Origin: Patescibacteria group bacterium
GTDB lineage: Bacteria > Patescibacteriota > Minisyncoccia > Phycocordibacterales > PALSA-1337
NCBI GenBank assembly: GCA_038061795.1
Contig: JBBTYL010000003.1
Span: forward strand, 41 to 64,040
Length of the DNA stretch: 64,000 nucleotides
Direction: 5' to 3'
The notes below the pieces were generated by a model. It was not told the origin of the DNA, did no database searches, and saw nothing but the letters and a program-made list of their open reading frames with translations. The position numbers and the translations under genes are program-made. Shown here in pieces: positions 3,047 to 47,877 of the stretch (positions are counted from its first letter, which is position 1; each line of letters begins with the position of its first letter).

Positions 3047-3475
3047 TTATACTCGTCGAGGCTTCTTTGGCTGCGGACCGTTGAATGGCACAGGAGTCTC
3101 GTCCTTGATAGAGGAAATCACTGCTCCTTTAGAAATAAAGCCTCGAATCGCTGACTCTCGTCCTGATCCGACGCCTTTCACTACTACTCTTATTTCCTTG
3201 AGGCCAAGGAGGGCTGCCTTTGATGCAAGGGTCTCGCCGACCTTCGCTGCTGCAAAAGGAGTCCCTTTTTTTGCACCCTTGAATCCAAGGCTTCCGCTCG
3301 ATGACCACATGATCGCATTTCCGTCATTGTCAGTAAGGAGAACCTTGGTATTATTATAAGTTGACTGGACGTAAAGCACGCCTGAATCAAGGCGCTTTTT
3401 AGAAGCAGATGGCTGCTTTGCAGCGCCCTCCTTCTTTGTCTCCCCTTCAGTTGTAACAATTCTTTTTTTTCCCAT
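3047..3475 (-). CDS. rpsK: 30S ribosomal protein S11
   Basis: GVLYVQSTYNNTKVLLTDNDGNAI...GFKGAKKGTPFAA are S11 motifs. Confidence 0.95.
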   Translation of the reverse strand: MGKKRIVTTEGETKKEGAAKQPSASKKRLDSGVLYVQSTYNNTKVLLTDNDGNAIMWSSSGSLGFKGAKKGTPFAAAKVGETLASKAALLGLKEIRVVVKGVGSGRESAIRGFISKGAVISSIKDETPVPFNGPQPKKPRRV

Positions 3476-4329: not shown

Positions 4330-5637
4330 TTATTCGGCTTTATATTCCAGTATAATCTTTTCCGCTGAGTTTGGAAAGGACCTCATCCAGAATGGCGTAA
4401 TTAGAGCGTAAGCATTGCTTATAGCCGTATATTTGCCAAATACGGCGTTGCTTGCCTTAAGATCGATGCCTTTAAGCTCATCCTTTAGTTTAGATTCAGA
4501 AAATGTTCCAGTTATTGAAATCGGGCCACTTAGCGTGAATATCATCGGCGTGCCTTTCTTAATTGAAAAATCCTTTGCATTTGAAACTTTGAAATTCAAA
4601 TTAGCATCCCCGCCAACAATATACGTATCTGATGGGAATTTTTGAATCTCTCTGCCAGCTATGAACTTTATAAGCGCATCGGCCTTGAAGATTGCAGCGT
4701 ACGCAGTTCCCTTCACGATGATATCAGCGGAAGTATTTTCTTTCATTACTGGCTCTAGATTCGTATATTCAATCGTGTATGCGCTATCGTAAAGTATGAA
4801 TCCACTAGGAACGGCGGCTTTCAGCTTTGCTAGCAGCTGCTCCCTAAGGGCTCCCTGCAGTGCTGTAACTGCAGCTTTCTGCGCGTCGGGGACTATGATC
4901 ATTTTGTTTCCAGAAAATCCACTGGTAATGTCTGTTTTTAGGCGAGCATAAAAACCGTCATATTTCGGCGTGCCCTTATAACCGACGATTTTGTAATCGC
5001 CTTTAAGGTCAGCGATGGACGCATTGTAGTTTGCACCAGCCTGATCAGCAACTATAGCAACTTCTATGCTGCCTGGAGACGTTTTTTTTCCGGGAACGCT
5101 GATTGTGACAGTCGTGCGGTATATAAGGCCGTCAGGATTGGATAATCGCGTTCCTGCCACCAAAGTCTGGGCAGTACTGCTGAAATTATTGTAAATTACG
5201 GCTGTGCCTTTTGCCTTTGTCTGAACTGCTGGACCGCTTGTTGCAGGTATGACCTGATGCGCCTCATCGGAAACGCTTACGACCTCATATCCAAGCTCAG
5301 TTCCTGATGCATTTTTCTTTGCGGTAAACGTCCCATTCACATCAAAGTCAGTAACCTTGGGTGTTATAGTGACGACAGCTTTTGAATATGAAAGTGAAAG
5401 AGCAATGCCGATTACGGCTATGCAGACAAAGACAATAAAAAAACTGAGAACATATTTCCCCGTACTCCTCTTCCTTTTTGGAAGCTCCTCATCTCGATCA
5501 GCACGAGCGGCTGACCTAACCGTGGTTTTTCGGCGCGAAGTTTTCACAGGAGCATCCACTTCGTGTTCGATTGGAATATTCCTGATTGAACGTCTTCCAG
5601 TTGGAACGATATCTTGTACGACTTTTTTTGAAGGCAT
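4330..5637 (-). CDS. Hypothetical bitopic membrane protein (basic cytoplasmic N-terminus, one TM, large extracytoplasmic domain)
   Basis: 435-aa ORF. TM segment YVLSFFIVFVCIAVIGIALSLSY follows an R/K-rich head. No family recognised. Confidence 0.55.
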   Translation of the reverse strand: MPSKKVVQDIVPTGRRSIRNIPIEHEVDAPVKTSRRKTTVRSAARADRDEELPKRKRSTGKYVLSFFIVFVCIAVIGIALSLSYSKAVVTITPKVTDFDVNGTFTAKKNASGTELGYEVVSVSDEAHQVIPATSGPAVQTKAKGTAVIYNNFSSTAQTLVAGTRLSNPDGLIYRTTVTISVPGKKTSPGSIEVAIVADQAGANYNASIADLKGDYKIVGYKGTPKYDGFYARLKTDITSGFSGNKMIIVPDAQKAAVTALQGALREQLLAKLKAAVPSGFILYDSAYTIEYTNLEPVMKENTSADIIVKGTAYAAIFKADALIKFIAGREIQKFPSDTYIVGGDANLNFKVSNAKDFSIKKGTPMIFTLSGPISITGTFSESKLKDELKGIDLKASNAVFGKYTAISNAYALITPFWMRSFPNSAEKIILEYKAE

Positions 5638-42282: not shown

Positions 42283-42483
42283 ATGAAAGGCACAGAAAGA
42301 CATACGAATATGAAAAAAACCGTAATTGAGATTCCGCCATCTTCTTGGAAACGCGGTGGGCAACAACCTCGGAAGAGCTTCAAACATGACGGAGAGGCTC
42401 AGGAAACAGGACGACGCCCAAAATCCTCGTGCAACACGAAAAAGGAGGGCTCCAAAAGGGATGACCCCCTCGAGCTCCTTTGA
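42283..42483 (+). other. Plus-strand transcription unit of unknown nature: a 66-aa highly basic ORF or a structured RNA
   Basis: Promoter-like TTGAAG-N17-TACAAT (42249..42277) 5 nt before the ATG. Purine-rich, strongly self-complementary sequence. Dedicated terminator at 42508..42541. Confidence 0.3.
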
Positions 42484-42507
42484 AAAGGATTATAACTAGG
42501 TTATCGG

Positions 42508-42541
42508 GCCGCTGGCATCAACCAGCGGCTTATCTTTATTT
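42508..42541 (+). terminator. Plus-strand rho-independent terminator
   Basis: GCCGCUGG-N6-CCAGCGGC followed by UUAUCUUUAUUU. The minus-strand reading has no U-tract. Confidence 0.6.
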
Positions 42542-43534
42542 CTTTCGCAAGAGGACTTTTTGCACTGCTTTCTTTATATCCTTCTCGCCCATTCCATAGT
42601 GTTCAAGAAGTTCATCGGGCGTTCCTGATTGGCCAAATTTATTCTTTACGCCAATAAATTCTATCGGTACTGGAAAATGCTGTGCTAGACATTCCGCAAC
42701 AGCTGATCCCATTCCTCCAGCAATCTGATGTTCTTCGACTGTGACTATTGCTCCCGCCTCATGCGCAAGCTTCCAGACGGCGTCTTCATCGAGCGGCTTG
42801 ATCGTCGCTAAATTCAAGACCTTTACGCGCTTCCCTTCCTTTTCCAATTCTTGTGCAACTTTCAACGCTTTATAAACAAGAGCTCCTGTGGCAATAATTC
42901 CAATTTCTGCTTTGCCTGATTTAGGTTCAAACAATACTTGAGCTTTCCCAATTTCGAAAGGAGTTTCTTCGGTCGTAATGACTGGCGTTTTCTCACGCGC
43001 AAGACGTATATATGTTGGAAATTTTGTCTTGGCACAGGCGATCGTTGCTTTTTTCGCTTCTATGGAATCGCATGGCGAAATGACGACCATGTTCGGAATC
43101 ACTCTCGTTATAGCGAGATCCTCGATAGCCTGATGTGTTCCTCCATCTGGTCCTACGGAGATGCCCGCATGAGAACCAGCGATCTTTACCGGTCGATCAT
43201 TATAGCAAATCGTCGTTCGGATCTGTTCCCAATTACGTCCAGGGCTGAACATCGCATATGAAGTAATGAAAGGGATCTTGCTCATAGCTGCCATTCCCGA
43301 AGCGACACTTGCAAGATTCTGTTCTGCAACGCCCATTTCGATGAATCGCTCTGGAAATTTATTCTTAAAAAGATGCATTTGGGTAGATTCCGTAAGATCA
43401 GCACAAAGTCCGACAACGTTTTTATCTAACTCTCCCGCCTTCAAGAGGCCCTCGCCGAAACCTTTGCGGATGGGAACTTGTTCAACATCGATCTCGAGCA
43501 GCTTTGGGTTGAGTTTTTGGGAGAGGCTTATCAT
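42536..43534 (-). CDS. Transketolase, C-terminal (pyrimidine-binding plus C-terminal domain) subunit
   Basis: FIEMGVAEQNLASVASGMA..., SHAGISVGPDGGTHQAIEDLA. 332 aa, typical of split transketolases. Confidence 0.9.
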   Translation of the reverse strand: MISLSQKLNPKLLEIDVEQVPIRKGFGEGLLKAGELDKNVVGLCADLTESTQMHLFKNKFPERFIEMGVAEQNLASVASGMAAMSKIPFITSYAMFSPGRNWEQIRTTICYNDRPVKIAGSHAGISVGPDGGTHQAIEDLAITRVIPNMVVISPCDSIEAKKATIACAKTKFPTYIRLAREKTPVITTEETPFEIGKAQVLFEPKSGKAEIGIIATGALVYKALKVAQELEKEGKRVKVLNLATIKPLDEDAVWKLAHEAGAIVTVEEHQIAGGMGSAVAECLAQHFPVPIEFIGVKNKFGQSGTPDELLEHYGMGEKDIKKAVQKVLLRKK

Positions 43535-43537
43535 ATT

Positions 43538-43804
43538 TTAAAGCATAGATAGGTTCACAAACGCTATGATGATGGAAAAGGCAATCAAGGTTCCTCCCTC
43601 GATCCTCCTCATGGAATAATCTTTATTTGTCTGCTTGTAGTTGTAACTTGAATCCTTATTGAAAATGAGGACAAGACCGAGCCCTAGGCTGACAAAAAGA
43701 ATCAGATAGAACCAGAACGAGGTCACATCCTTTATTATGAAAAGATAGATTGCGTTTGCAAGAAAGCCTAATTTAAGTGCAATTTCAAAGTATTTCATAT
43801 GCAC
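43538..43804 (-). CDS. Small 3-TM membrane protein (88 aa)
   Basis: Hydrophobic ORF whose stop lies 3 nt before the start of the tkt C-terminal subunit. Confidence 0.45.
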   Translation of the reverse strand: MHMKYFEIALKLGFLANAIYLFIIKDVTSFWFYLILFVSLGLGLVLIFNKDSSYNYKQTNKDYSMRRIEGGTLIAFSIIIAFVNLSML

Positions 43805-43835
43805 TTAATTATAACCTATATTCGCACAAAACAAG

Positions 43836-44117
43836 CTATATGACGGTGAGTTTCAATCCAAGACCTGAAGTGACTTTTTGAAGAAATGACAAAGTAGGGT
43901 TCGTGCGTCCAGATTCAAAGCGCGCAAGAGCTGACTGGGCAATGCCGAGTTTTTGGGCCAATTGCCTTTGGGTAAGTTTTTTCTCAATCCGTGCCTTGAC
44001 GAGAGCATTATAAATCTTGAATTCGAGCTCTAGGCTATCATAAGTTTTCTTATTCTCCGGGTCCTTAAGAAATTCTTCCATGAATTCTTTATGCGTTGTC
44101 ATTTTATTTGTTTTCAT
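43836..44117 (-). CDS. XRE-family HTH antitoxin (HigA-like)
   Basis: KKLTQRQLAQKLGIAQSALARFESGRTNPTLSFLQKV is a Cro/C1 HTH. Immediately downstream of the Gp49-like toxin gene. Confidence 0.8.
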   Translation of the reverse strand: MKTNKMTTHKEFMEEFLKDPENKKTYDSLELEFKIYNALVKARIEKKLTQRQLAQKLGIAQSALARFESGRTNPTLSFLQKVTSGLGLKLTVI

Positions 44118-44143
44118 GTTGGTATGATAACATATATGTTATA

Positions 44144-44464
44144 TTAAGCAAGCTTATTAATTTCTTTTTGAACTCTTCTGGCATACTTGATATCCTTCAC
44201 ATCTATCTTCCAAGCTTTTTTGATAAAGCCATGAATAATGCACACTTTGCCGTTATGAAAAATATACAGTATCCTAACTTTTTTCTTTCCGAGTGTCCTT
44301 AATTCAAATAATCCTCCGCCTAGGCTTTTAGAATCAGGCATACCAATCAAATTTCCATATTCTTCAAGCAAACCTATTGTCTTTCTTGTTCGAGATGCTG
44401 AAATAGCATCAAGACTTCTTATAAATCCTTTTACTTTTTCATTATAGTAAATAACTTCCATCAC
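44144..44464 (-). CDS. Type II toxin, phage Gp49-like / HigB-RelE superfamily
   Basis: GGGLFELRTLGKKKVRILYIFHNGKVCIIHGFIKKAWKI pattern typical of Gp49/DUF891 toxins. Toxin-first order as in higBA. Confidence 0.72.
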   Translation of the reverse strand: MMEVIYYNEKVKGFIRSLDAISASRTRKTIGLLEEYGNLIGMPDSKSLGGGLFELRTLGKKKVRILYIFHNGKVCIIHGFIKKAWKIDVKDIKYARRVQKEINKLA

Positions 44465-44567
44465 CCAACTCTAGCAGAGCCAGATGAAGAAAAACCTAAG
44501 AAGTTCTAAAATCCTGATAAATTTTTGATTGAGCGATAAGAACTAGTAAGCGTCTAGATACCCTATT

Positions 44568-44870
44568 CTATAAGCTTCTATTCCTATTCTTAATTTTTCC
44601 GTAGAAATAACCTACAAGCACGCCTATACCAATGTAAACTAGTAAAATAATTACAAAGGCAATAATAAGTCCTAGAAAACCTGCTGCAGAATGGCCGAGC
44701 AAACTTAAATGAAATCCGGAGTATTTTCCAAGAAGATTAAGTGCATCAAGCGGGAAAATTGTAAGATCGTATCTTATGACGAAAGGGGGGATATACAATA
44801 CTGCAATAATTAAATATATTATTGTAAATACAATTCCTCCCTTCAACCAATATCTTTTTGTGTTTTGCAT
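44568..44870 (-). CDS. Small 3-TM membrane protein (100 aa)
   Basis: Hydrophobic ORF starting 9 nt after the stop of the tkt N-terminal subunit. Confidence 0.45.
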   Translation of the reverse strand: MQNTKRYWLKGGIVFTIIYLIIAVLYIPPFVIRYDLTIFPLDALNLLGKYSGFHLSLLGHSAAGFLGLIIAFVIILLVYIGIGVLVGYFYGKIKNRNRSL

Positions 44871-44879
44871 ATAATTTAA

Positions 44880-45734
44880 TTATACTTTAATTCCTAACGC
44901 CTTCCTCGCAATACTTATCTCTTCCGGCGTCCCTGGCGGCTTGCCGTGCCATTCGAACATGCGCTCGAAAGCTGGAATTCCTTTCGAAGAAATCGTATTC
45001 GCGATAATGACTGACGGCTTGTCGAAAACTGCAAGCGCCTGGGTATACGCTTGATCAATTGCCCTAAAACTATGCCCGTCTATCTCCTGCACATGCCAGT
45101 TGAAAGCGGCCCACTTCGCTCCAAGCGGGTCCAAAGGCATGATGTCTTCGGTAAATCCATCGATCTGGATGTTATTCCTATCAACAAAAACCGCCACATT
45201 CTGTAATTTTTCCTTTCCTGCAAGCATGATTGCCTCCCAATTCTGCCCTTCATCAAGCTCTCCGTCTCCGACAAGACAAATGAACTGCTTTCCTGAAGTT
45301 TTTTCAAAATCAATGCGTTCTGCGAGCGCCATTCCGACGAGTTGCGACAAACCAGAGCCAAGGGGACCTGAAGAATTCTCCAGCGCAGGCAAATATTCCC
45401 GGTGAGGATGTCCCTGAAGCTTGCTGCCGAATTTTCGTAGAGTTTTCAGCTCTGAAAGAGGAAAATATCCCGCATGCGCCATAGTCGCGTAAAGGACTGG
45501 GCAAATATGTCCATTGGAAAGAACGAGGCGGTCCCGGTATTCCCAGTCGGGCTTCTTCGGATCATGTTTGAGCGCATGGAAATACAGATATGTGAAAATA
45601 TCAGCCATATCAAGTGGTCCGGCAGTATGGCCGGACTTGGCTTCTATGAGCATCTCGATAATCGACTGCCTTATAGCATGCGCTTTTTCAAAAAGGAATT
45701 GGGCTTTTTCGTCTGTGAGAGGTTGAAGGGCCAT
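44880..45734 (-). CDS. Transketolase, N-terminal (thiamine-diphosphate-binding) subunit
   Basis: SGHTAGPLDMADIFTYLYF, RDRLVLSNGHICPVLYA, GDGELDEGQNWEA. Start set at MALQPL. Confidence 0.9.
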   Translation of the reverse strand: MALQPLTDEKAQFLFEKAHAIRQSIIEMLIEAKSGHTAGPLDMADIFTYLYFHALKHDPKKPDWEYRDRLVLSNGHICPVLYATMAHAGYFPLSELKTLRKFGSKLQGHPHREYLPALENSSGPLGSGLSQLVGMALAERIDFEKTSGKQFICLVGDGELDEGQNWEAIMLAGKEKLQNVAVFVDRNNIQIDGFTEDIMPLDPLGAKWAAFNWHVQEIDGHSFRAIDQAYTQALAVFDKPSVIIANTISSKGIPAFERMFEWHGKPPGTPEEISIARKALGIKV

Positions 45735-45755
45735 GATTACCCTTAAGTATATCAC

Positions 45756-46421
45756 CTATATCGCCTGAAAATCAGCGTAAGTATCCACAATGTTCTCTGA
45801 ATTGAAGATCGCTGACCCGACAACCAACCTATCGGCGCCTGCATGCTTCAGGAGAGGAGCTGTTTCAAGAGAAACTCCCCCATCAATCTGGACCTTAAGC
45901 TCTGGAAACATCGCTTTGACTTCTTTTACCTTATCAATAGTTCCTGGTTCGAATTTCTGTCCTTGAAAACCTGCTTTTCGAATTCCCATTACCTGTACAA
46001 ACTGAATTTTATCCACATATTTATTTAAATCTTCTACGTTTGCCGCCTGACCAATAGCAACTCCAATTTCCACGAGACCTTTAAGGACGTCTAGAACCGG
46101 TGTGAGGTCCTTTGAACTCTCGAGATGTAGAACTACTCTTTCAGCACCAGCTGAAAGCCACTTGCGAGCATCGTCGACGGTAGGATTATCGATCATGAGA
46201 TCAAATTCATAGTTTATCTGCTCCCATTCTGGCATTCCTCGTTCTTCGCGAAGAATCGACTCGAAATTCTCATCCTGCTTCCAATAAGGCCAGGTAATGC
46301 TCGGCACGAACTTGCCATCGCAAATATCTATTTGAACGAGCGGGGAAAGGCCTGTGATCAATTCAATATTTTCTTCAATTTCTCTGAAATTCTTCGGCAG
46401 TATTGCAGGTATGATCTCCAT
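45756..46421 (-). CDS. Ribulose-phosphate 3-epimerase-like TIM-barrel protein
   Basis: IIPAILPKNF...VQIDICDGKFVPSITWP parallels the Rpe motif PSILsaDf...hvDvMDGhFVPN. Sits between rpiB and tkt. Start set at MEIIPAIL (alternative 46454). Confidence 0.62.
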   Translation of the reverse strand: MEIIPAILPKNFREIEENIELITGLSPLVQIDICDGKFVPSITWPYWKQDENFESILREERGMPEWEQINYEFDLMIDNPTVDDARKWLSAGAERVVLHLESSKDLTPVLDVLKGLVEIGVAIGQAANVEDLNKYVDKIQFVQVMGIRKAGFQGQKFEPGTIDKVKEVKAMFPELKVQIDGGVSLETAPLLKHAGADRLVVGSAIFNSENIVDTYADFQAI

Positions 46422-46437
46422 ATGTTTGTTTGATTGG

Positions 46438-46887
46438 CTATTGGATATTATCAAGCATTTCTATCCTTTTTACATGACGCTCCTCGTGGGTGAAGGGCGT
46501 GGCTATCCAAAGACGAACAGCTTCCTGAGCTTCCTTCTCTTTTACAAAATCAGCGCCAATAGAAAGAACATTCGCATCATTGTGCTCACGAGAAAGCCTT
46601 ACGATTTCCATGCTTCCACCATAGTAAACATCAGCCCGCACACCTGGAAAACGATTGCAAATAATCGCTTCTCCCTGACCTGATCTCCCAAAAACGATTG
46701 CTTTCGTGTTTTCTGGATCATCTACGATCTTCATAGCGACTGGCAGCATGATTTCTGGGTAATTATCAGCGGGGTCGAAAGCGCGAGCTCCCATGTCTTC
46801 TATTTGAAACCCTTCAGCGATAAGAAAGTCCTTTATGTTGTTCTTGAGTCCGAATCCGGCATGGTCTGCGGCAAGTAATATCTTCAT
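46438..46887 (-). CDS. rpiB: Ribose-5-phosphate isomerase B
   Basis: MKILLAADHAGFGLKNNIKDFL start and the size (149 aa) are typical of RpiB/LacAB. Confidence 0.9.
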   Translation of the reverse strand: MKILLAADHAGFGLKNNIKDFLIAEGFQIEDMGARAFDPADNYPEIMLPVAMKIVDDPENTKAIVFGRSGQGEAIICNRFPGVRADVYYGGSMEIVRLSREHNDANVLSIGADFVKEKEAQEAVRLWIATPFTHEERHVKRIEMLDNIQ

Positions 46888-46891
46888 AAGT

Positions 46892-47203
46892 TTATGCGCT
46901 TATTGTAGCATCTTTTATTCCCAAATGTCTCTTTATGAGATCGAGGTCACTTTTTACCCCGCCAAATTCAGCATCAATCTTATCGAATCTGTCATCGATT
47001 TTATCGAATCTTTCATACACACGATCAAAATTACCCATCATAGCTTCGGTCATGTAATCAAACTTCTTATCAACTTCATTGAATCTTCGATCGATTTTTG
47101 AAAAGTTTTCATCAGTAATAATAAAACCGTTCTCTGAAGTTTTCCTCAGGGAATCAAAATCAGCTTTGGTAACAAATGGAGAATTGTAGGATTCTTGCAT
47201 CAT
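46892..47203 (-). CDS. Hypothetical coiled-coil protein with internal (R/K)FDKID-type repeats
   Basis: FSKIDRRFNEVDKKFDYM / FDRVYERFDKIDDRFDKIDAEF repeats seen in translation. Confidence 0.45.
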   Translation of the reverse strand: MMQESYNSPFVTKADFDSLRKTSENGFIITDENFSKIDRRFNEVDKKFDYMTEAMMGNFDRVYERFDKIDDRFDKIDAEFGGVKSDLDLIKRHLGIKDATISA

Positions 47204-47325
47204 AGATTAATTATTAAGTAATAATATCACATGATACAGAAGCGAAATGAAGAATTAATGAAGATTTAGGTTTTTCGACAGTTCAACAATAAATCTTGAC
47301 AAAATGTCCAGCGGGAAGAGTGTAA

Positions 47326-47877
47326 TTATGCTTTATAAAAATCTACTTCCTCATAATAATATGACTGTTCAATACCCTTCATAAAAACATCGCGATCATC
47401 GATTTTATCAGTTAGAGCTGCATGTAAAAGCTCGCGAATTTCGAGGTCGTTCACTGGGCTTCGCTGCATAGCATTCAAATAATCCGCTTTATCAATCTTC
47501 GCCCAATCAATGCATCGCTTGAGGTTTTTTTTAAAAATCAAATCCAACCAGATTCTCATACTACGTCCATTGCCTTCCATAAACGGATGAGCTATATTCA
47601 TTTCCACATATTTCGCTATAATTTCCTCAAAAGTGCTTTCTGGCATAATGCTGATGCTTTTGAGACTTTCACTCAAATATAAACAAGAGGCGAATCTAAA
47701 TCCCCCCTTGCTCATGTCTTTCGTGCGGATCTGACCGGCAAAATCATAAAGTCCTTTGAACAGATATTCATGAACCTGTTGCAGGCCTTTGACCGTGCCC
47801 ACCTCGAAACTTTCAATTTCTTGGCTGCCAAACAGTTTTTTTGCGCGTTCCTTGCTGATTGCATCGACGTTTTGCAT
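47326..47877 (-). CDS. Fic-domain protein (putative AMPylase)
   Basis: Canonical Fic motif [12 protein letters not shown]. 183 aa. The C-terminal SYYYEE resembles, imperfectly, the class III inhibitory motif (S/T)xxxE(G/N). Confidence 0.88.

Follow-up and report, generated by a model that had tools for sequence, protein, structure and literature searches.

Classical higBA operons, such as those of Rts1 and Pseudomonas, reportedly carry a second promoter that transcribes the antitoxin alone. Flexible genomic islets are variable genes held between conserved flanks and exchanged by homologous recombination. A survey describes gp49 (PF05973) as a family of ribosome-dependent mRNases of the RelE/ParE superfamily with toxin-first gene order (PMC11980606), and it has been hypothesised that toxin-antitoxin systems are largely absent from reduced-genome Patescibacteria (PMC12455944). 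Here we analyse a Gp49/HigB-like toxin gene and an XRE/HigA-like antitoxin gene in a stretch of 64,000 nucleotides (nt) that we call the window (contig JBBTYL010000003.1 of assembly GCA_038061795.1, positions 41 to 64,040). Its host is a Paceibacteria-type Patescibacterium, and several contigs with related loci come from Hainich groundwater well H41. The pair lies between tktN and tktC, which encode the two halves of a split transketolase, and is bracketed by genes for two small membrane proteins, TM100 and TM88. We consider it probable that a segment of ~0.76 kb, from ~44575 to ~43820, is an autonomous type II gp49/HigB-HigA cassette located between two older and unrelated membrane-protein genes. 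It would then be an ordinary selfish cassette in an often-variable gene junction, with unrelated residents on either side.

The toxin gene (44144-44461, minus strand) encodes 105 amino acids from an ATG start, with an in-frame GTG at 44464. Its product matches PF05973 at 4.9e-13 over profile positions 2-88 of 90, scoring 49.4 bits where the cut-off is 23.9. The HTH-XRE antitoxin gene (43836-44117, minus strand) begins 26 nt downstream on the same strand, in agreement with the toxin-first order of the gp49 family, and encodes 93 amino acids with a C-terminal HTH_3 domain (5.9e-15). Among solved structures, the best sequence match of the toxin is Streptococcus pneumoniae HigB (6AF3_A, 1.3e-4), and that of the antitoxin is HigA (6AF3_B, 9.1e-9), the partner chain of the toxin's match. 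An AlphaFold2 model of the toxin built from 49 homologues (predicted local distance difference test score 89; element order E-H-H-E-E-E-E-H) has the N-terminal helices, four-stranded antiparallel sheet and long C-terminal helix of the RelE-type fold. Its top Foldseek matches, all at probability 1.0, are HigB in 6af4 (TM-score 0.8), Mycobacterium tuberculosis HigB1, RelE, YoeB and HigB2. Toxin residues E53, R55, R63, F79 and K81 are invariant across the 49 homologues and align to E66/R68/R73/F90/K92 of S. pneumoniae HigB, the catalytic set proposed in a study of ribosome-bound HigB1 (PMC9098466). Toxin and antitoxin are kept together in 11/11 related cassettes examined at the sequence level. 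In GenBank the toxin is already annotated as a 'type II toxin-antitoxin system RelE/ParE family toxin' and the two membrane reading frames as 'hypothetical proteins'; in NCBIfam and PADLOC the toxin had no match above the curated cut-off and the antitoxin only generic HTH matches. The HigB-like/HigA-like assignment, first made from the letters of the sequence in a first-pass annotation, survives these profile, solved-structure and fold tests. Judged by sequence and model, the pair is a type II toxin-antitoxin cassette of the gp49/HigB-HigA kind, and its predicted toxicity follows from family analogy.

The likeness to S. pneumoniae HigBA (6AF3/6AF4) extends over both proteins, one per chain, and takes in the long C-terminal helix, the conserved equivalents of the catalytic residues and the position of the toxin gene ahead of its partner. 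However, identity is only ~25%, the host is a Patescibacterium, the cassette sits inside a metabolic operon and is known here from sequence, and the candidate operator palindrome and apparent leaderless layout described below are specific to the window subfamily. M. tuberculosis HigB1, the toxin of a toxin-antitoxin-chaperone (TAC) system (Rv1955), and other gp49 (PF05973) toxins share the same Pfam family and fold, but the window cassette lacks a SecB-like chaperone gene.

The two membrane reading frames bracket the pair symmetrically, and the first-pass annotation had suggested that they might belong to the inserted unit. Comparison with close relatives, whose transketolase is 92-95% identical to that of the window, does not bear this out. 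Loci L091-L093, from the same groundwater well and with tktN 93% identical, have the order tktN-TM100-(10 nt)-TM88-tktC, and loci L088-L090, with tktN 95% identical, have tktN-TM88-tktC; neither group contains a toxin-antitoxin pair. Window DNA aligns with that of L091 across tktN and TM100; the homology ends at ~44572-44577 and resumes in the AT-rich stretch before the TM88 start, placing the right edge of the toxin-antitoxin insertion in the 37-nt spacer at 43799-43835 (minus strand). Relative to L088, the extra block in the window reaches from the TM100 start (44870) to the TM88 ATG (43798). Window-type cassettes elsewhere, with toxins 64-70% identical to the window's, were found in seven housekeeping contexts, all of them different; each is a bare pair, and 7/7 sites lack a TM100- or TM88-like neighbour. 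Pairs are thus found without the membrane genes and membrane genes without the pair, a distribution that lacks the third-gene co-occurrence of a three-component module. On these comparisons the symmetric bracketing is that of a cassette sitting between two resident genes, and the membrane genes appear to bracket the pair because the cassette landed between them. The evidence thus supports the view of the pair as an accessory cassette. The exact five-gene order, whose conservation across distant relatives would have counted against the first-pass reading, was found in no other sampled lineage, yet TM88 and TM100 behave like old neighbours of tkt.

The membrane genes themselves look like established members of the region. 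TM100 (44568-44870, minus strand), a predicted small membrane protein of 100 amino acids, has hydrophobic stretches at approximately residues 7-36 and 55-93 that suggest 2-3 membrane spans by hydropathy; towards its C-terminus it carries the conserved motif GxxYGKIKNR. TM88 (43538-43798, minus strand) is 86 amino acids long from a conserved ATG ('MKYFEI'), the 88-residue reading depending on a GTG start at 43804; its hydrophobic stretches (~5-23, 24-49 and 65-86) suggest three spans by hydropathy, and it carries the conserved motifs LIFNKxSSYxY and RRIEG. Its stop codon lies 3 nt before the tktC ATG. The first-pass annotation had proposed a check for similarity between the two proteins, and none was detectable when they were compared. 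Pfam and NCBIfam gave no match for TM100; TM88 had no Pfam match and no NCBIfam match above the curated cut-off, and PADLOC gave neither protein a match above its cut-off. Word-indexed protein searches returned only two close matches for each protein; an exhaustive search placed TM100 in a family of 60 representative clusters at E<=1e-3, mostly full-length and ~100 amino acids.

TM100-family profile matches occur at the tktN-tktC junction in L091, L005, L094 and, weakly, in L025 and L037, and elsewhere in the rpiB-rpe-tkt array in L027, L045, L006, L010, L014 and L039. In these last six loci the position of the gene shifts, from immediately ahead of rpiB to the interval between rpiB and rpe, but it stays within a few kb of rpiB, rpe and tkt. 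This pattern suggests a loose but persistent association of the family with the pentose-phosphate gene array. No fetched locus has a TM88 homologue away from the junction: the gene immediately precedes tktC in L088, L091 and L012 and lies one reading frame further upstream in L009, in each case without a toxin-antitoxin pair. TM88 and TM100 behave, then, as long-standing neighbours of tkt and pentose-phosphate genes. The ratio of nonsynonymous to synonymous divergence (dN/dS) is 0.18 for TM100 relative to L091 and 0.02 for TM88 relative to L088, values that mark both, as far as sequence comparison can tell, as real resident junction genes under purifying selection. Between the window and L091 (copy at 4977-5276), TM100 has a dS of 0.30 and 87-96% nucleotide identity, compared with a dS of 1.4-2.1 and 74-93% for tktN and tktC, which hints at recent exchange between two populations of one groundwater well and favours exchange of junction content by recombination through conserved flanks.

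The cassette belongs to a sizeable family. The gp49/XRE toxins form at least 129 sequence clusters at 90% identity, many of them 60-70% identical to the window toxin, and the eleven genomic contexts that we fetched were all uncultured, with Patescibacteria-type housekeeping neighbourhoods. The window antitoxin is 80-86% identical to the antitoxins of window-type cassettes elsewhere and 54-63% identical to those of L005, L010 and L094. One assembly, GCA_965099885.1 (L085, L087), contains at least two window-type cassettes; they lie on separate contigs, and their toxins share 69% and 67% identity with the window toxin. A tRNA gene lies 43-66 nt upstream of the toxin reading frame as called in 3/5 of the window-type cassettes with a tRNA-gene scan or a known upstream gene (L085 3733-3935, Leu; L086 3886-3958, Ala; L087 3891-3963, Arg); this proximity suggests that the cassettes either favour the 3' side of tRNA genes or are transcribed together with them.

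The spacer between toxin and antitoxin holds a conserved candidate regulatory element. An 18-bp near-perfect palindrome, TATAACATATATGTTATC in the coding-strand reading (44126-44143), is unique in the window, with 0.02 chance matches expected. It occupies the same place in 11/11 cassettes, across toxins that have diverged to ~40% identity, and the variant in L094, GATATCATATATGATATC, is itself a perfect palindrome. In the window its right half reads TGnTATCAT, an extended -10-like sequence 6 nt before the antitoxin ATG. Across cassettes the right half is always TGnTAnnnT and ends 6-9 nt before that ATG, and by eye the 6-9 nt between box and ATG contain nothing that resembles a Shine-Dalgarno sequence. 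A comparable box, TAGAGT, stands 6 nt before the toxin ATG in the 106-nt spacer 5' of the toxin gene (44462-44567, minus strand), and 8/9 cassettes have a TAnnnT box 6-7 nt before the toxin start. This spacer also forms a local hairpin over the toxin start region in the centroid structure, its overall fold being not significant relative to shuffles (z-score 0.12). The window and L005 share the motif CTCTGYTAGAGTT just before the toxin start.

We infer from this layout that the palindrome is a candidate antitoxin operator combined with an antitoxin-only promoter, and that the cassette may be self-promoted with near-leaderless transcripts. Like classical higBA, it has the toxin gene first and a promoter-like element with a palindrome placed for transcription of the antitoxin alone. 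Unlike those operons, it has the element in the 26-nt spacer instead of within the toxin gene, and the distance of only 6-9 nt to the ATG would make for a near-leaderless mRNA.

A further box, TTATAATTAA, lies ~9 nt before the TM88 ATG in the 37-nt spacer. The TATAATTAA...ATG stretch there is common to the window and to L091, which is free of toxin-antitoxin genes, and it is therefore part of the site and not of the cassette. Upstream of tktC, boxes of the TTATAATTAA type occur in 10/26 insert-bearing loci and 23/56 others, showing no enrichment. An outward promoter carried by the cassette and re-expressing tktC was considered and rejected, the TATAAT box being shared with L091 and not enriched in insert-bearing loci.

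The promoter and terminator mapping inside the insert that had been proposed was taken up by sequence scans. Terminator-like counts in the region are at chance (shuffle) level, with no coding-strand call within the cassette; across the insert as a whole the minus strand has a single terminator-like site, a weak 5-pair stem that falls within TM88. No Rfam family of structured RNA was found in the region at E<=1. Being at chance level, these generic scans neither support nor exclude a self-promoted cassette.

Taken together, these observations suggest the following course of events. TM100 and TM88 would already have occupied the variable tktN-tktC junction of this Paceibacteria lineage before the cassette arrived. 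By analogy with characterised gp49-family toxins, the toxin would act as a ribosome-dependent mRNA endonuclease, and the XRE antitoxin would bind and neutralise it, and repress transcription through the conserved palindrome between the two genes. The -10-like box overlapping the palindrome would yield an antitoxin-only transcript with little or no leader, and a similar box stands 6 nt before the toxin start. The cassette probably persists through addiction or defence and not through sugar metabolism. Expression of tktC is most likely by read-through of the co-directional, terminator-free array, and TM88 and tktC may be translationally coupled through their 3-nt gap. With no coding-strand terminator called in the cassette and so short a gap before tktC, read-through is the simplest explanation of how tktC is expressed.

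How unusual is an interrupted junction? Split transketolase genes were said to be usually adjacent, and in ~80 related species representatives this holds, with a median tktN-tktC gap of 50-88 nt; in the closest empty relatives, L007 and L004, the two genes overlap at an ATGA stop/start. The caveat is that an insert of at least 240 nt is present in 20/79 species (~25%), so that the rarity of an interrupted junction implied by the first-pass annotation is not supported. For the two junctions next to it in the array the corresponding figures are 12% and 19% of species, which weakens any case for the junction as a strong, specific hotspot. The gain of small genes inside conserved arrays appears instead to be a general habit of these genomes, with the tktN-tktC junction only mildly enriched. 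Read from translations rather than by profile searches, the inserts are mostly small reading frames with 2-4 hydrophobic segments by a crude hydropathy count; others comprise a four-helix-bundle-like reading frame, an acetyltransferase-like reading frame and a 4-kb block. All junction inserts are lower in guanine-plus-cytosine (GC) content than the tkt genes.

The junction resembles a flexible genomic islet. Patchy and nested content, low GC, the absence of mobility genes and repeats, and the low dS of TM100 are all shared with such islets. It differs in being very small (mostly 0.3-1.4 kb), in lying between two subunit genes of one enzyme, and in having neighbouring junctions that vary nearly as often, as expected of a genome-wide habit and not of a dedicated hotspot.

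Other junctions of the array vary too. A 110-amino-acid LapA_dom membrane gene lies between rpe and tktN in L088 (3737-4069) and L091 (3722-4054) and is absent from the window, where rpe and tktN are ~20 nt apart (45735-45755). In L088 a phage-integrase-family gene stands upstream of rpiB (459-1592, GCA_029980445.1), where the window and L091 hold gap and small reading frames. The tktN-tktC junction of L006 (~3190-3260) is a run of N, either masked or a scaffold gap. In the literature that we searched, we did not find the phrase 'split transketolase', nor any description of a toxin-antitoxin pair between the two halves.

Several points weigh against our interpretation of the pair as an autonomous cassette that arrived between residents. 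A TM100-family gene directly precedes the pair in 3/4 junction lineages that have one (the window, L005 and L094), which could mean linkage and not coincidence, and the pair may instead have been lost from L091. The cassette ends show no target-site duplication, inverted repeats, recombinase gene or attC-like element. Promoter-like sites number 8 where 6.7±2.5 are expected, which is chance level, and Patescibacteria promoters are not characterised. Finally, the related M. tuberculosis toxins HigB2 and HigB3 were non-toxic when tested (PMC9098466), so family membership is no guarantee of activity.

As to a vehicle, the search for repeats at the cassette flanks returned short, chance-level repeats only, and with no Rfam match at E<=1 and no recombinase reading frame in the region, the locus lacks the features of a transposon, insertion sequence or integron cassette. 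A loose resemblance between the two cassette edges, GAATAGGGTAT and GAATATAGGTTAT, was too weak to count as a duplication. A phage origin was also set aside, IMG/VR holding only distant relatives at 31-50% identity.

The alternative that survives best concerns the order of events. A TM100-pair-TM88 arrangement might be ancestral to the Paceibacteria clade, with relatives reduced by differential loss and the original pair later swapped, in the window lineage, for a paralogous one; this would change the history that we propose, not the function. Three further junctions contain gp49/XRE pairs: in L005 a TM100-family gene precedes the pair, in L010 the pair precedes a 49-amino-acid reading frame, and in L094 a 102-amino-acid reading frame and a TM100-family gene precede the pair. 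These are also all of the second-lineage toxin genomes with known context, and in a local tkt tree the carriers of junction pairs are scattered in one clade among empty and partly filled relatives, as are TM88 (L009, L012, L088, L091) and TM100 (L005, L094, L091 and, weakly, L025 and L037). Such scatter, and the CTCTGYTAGAGTT motif common to the window and L005, count in favour of this reading. However, the toxins of L005, L010 and L094 are 57-58% identical to each other and 42-43% identical to the window toxin, and those of L005 and L010 rank 113th and 112th of 114 homologues relative to it, indicating that at least two toxin lineages use the junction. In both toxin and antitoxin, the window pair resembles cassettes at unrelated sites much more closely than it does those at the same junction in other genomes. 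The four genes were seen together in no other sampled genome, the clean ATGA overlap of the empty L007 and L004 would be hard to regain by deletion, and the dS of TM100 (0.30 between window and L091, beside 1.4-2.1 for the flanking tkt genes) speaks for recent exchange rather than strict vertical descent. The distribution can be read as the independent arrival of two cassette lineages or as an old pair later replaced; we regard an ancestral arrangement as unlikely.

Linkage of another kind would follow if TM100, toxin and antitoxin formed one three-gene functional module, with TM100 as, for example, a membrane-associated sensor or anchor. The spacing invites the idea: in the window, L005 and L094 the toxin gene follows a TM100-family gene at a distance of 62-106 nt. 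Yet TM100-family genes occur without the pair in L091, L025, L037, L027, L045, L006, L014 and L039, and L010 and the seven window-type cassettes elsewhere have no such gene upstream of the toxin. The window TM100 is 88% identical to that of L091, which lacks the pair, and the toxin groups with foreign cassettes, from which we conclude that the two genes have different histories. A shared module is accordingly very improbable.

Equally speculative is a role of the junction itself as a recombination-driven landing pad that repeatedly captures self-promoted and near-leaderless HigBA cassettes, of at least two lineages, which then help to set tktC expression. Were this so, the antitoxin would act on the downstream operator-like TATAAT box or the toxin would cleave the polycistronic mRNA, tying growth arrest to pentose-phosphate flux in an organism of minimal metabolism; we would give such a scheme only a slight chance. 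Related to it is the proposal that the cassette has been co-opted to control transketolase, with antitoxin-regulated or toxin-cleaved transcripts setting the TktN:TktC ratio and linking growth arrest to pentose-phosphate flux. The pair does separate the subunit genes in four lineages (window, L005, L010, L094), and in each of them the antitoxin stop is followed by a TATAAT-type box that resembles the right half of the putative operator. But the window's TATAAT box is shared with L091 and hence is not borne by the cassette, insert-bearing loci show no excess of such boxes ahead of tktC, direct coupling of the two genes suffices in most relatives, and the cassette family is found mostly at unrelated sites, all of which makes co-option hard to credit. 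That the arrangement is an assembly or binning chimera can be dismissed: the source is a metagenome-assembled genome and GC falls sharply within the insert, but the same order appears in independently assembled contigs from two sources, one of the contigs with the tktC protein is in the 0.2-1 Mb size class, and graded intermediates exist among relatives.

The arrangement is real on other grounds as well. The identical tktC protein occurs on 7 public contigs, and the two junction-spanning contigs displayed (NCBI GCA_964357215.1 and an ENA contig from Hainich well H41) have an identical six-gene order, with which a short Logan contig is consistent; because these NCBI and ENA contigs are independent, the order is not an assembly artefact. 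All six reading frames described by the first-pass annotation were recovered in its order on the minus strand: tktN, TM100, toxin, antitoxin, TM88 and tktC, separated by 9, 106, 26, 37 and 3 nt. The thiamine-diphosphate-binding half, tktN (44880-45734, minus strand), encodes 284 amino acids from its ATG and matches PF00456 Transketolase_N (1.4e-60). The pyrimidine-binding and C-terminal half, tktC (42536-43534, minus strand), encodes 332 amino acids and matches PF02779 Transket_pyr (4.1e-38) and PF02780 Transketolase_C (1.3e-27). With PF00456 on one reading frame and PF02779 and PF02780 on the other, the split enzyme is intact here. The same split form is present in 80/83 related transketolase loci sampled, and tktN is 59-95% identical to its counterparts across 80+ Patescibacteria loci. 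GC is 32-40% in the four insert genes, 45-48% in the tkt genes and 44% on average in the window. In the co-directional minus-strand array, rpiB (46438-46887) and rpe (45756-46454) precede tktN, and uvrB follows tktC.

If our preferred account of a cassette between residents is right, tightly coupled subunit genes are not protected from insertion, and the graded junction states of co-occurring groundwater relatives offer a small, clean example of small-gene gain and loss in conserved arrays. A gp49/XRE family of at least 129 clusters also contrasts with the hypothesised scarcity of toxin-antitoxin systems in these bacteria. The compact, conserved layout, with its palindrome over a -10-like box, gives a testable view of promoter, operator and leaderless translation in bacteria not yet grown.

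A second accessory islet lies nearby, on the minus strand between gap and rpiB (46892-47877, 30-40% GC). It contains a Fic-domain gene (47326-47877; PF02661, 1e-11) that matches the PADLOC candidate defence family PDC-S04 (6.7e-93) and, beside it, a reading frame of 103 amino acids (46892-47203) rich in short FD-containing repeats such as FDKIDDRFDKIDAEF. In L091 a homologue of this reading frame is kept (2175-2540), at 121 amino acids and with an ~18-amino-acid tandem duplication, KFDYMTEAMMGNFDRVY; there a reading frame of 114 amino acids with a hydrophobic N-terminus takes the place of Fic. Immediately beyond the stop codon of tktC, the scan called a plus-strand terminator, a GC-rich hairpin of 10 pairs (42506-42531) that lies downstream of a plus-strand reading frame of 66 amino acids (42283-42483). 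A minus-strand promoter-like site matching at 10/12 positions overlaps this hairpin, ahead of uvrB (region 42483-42540).

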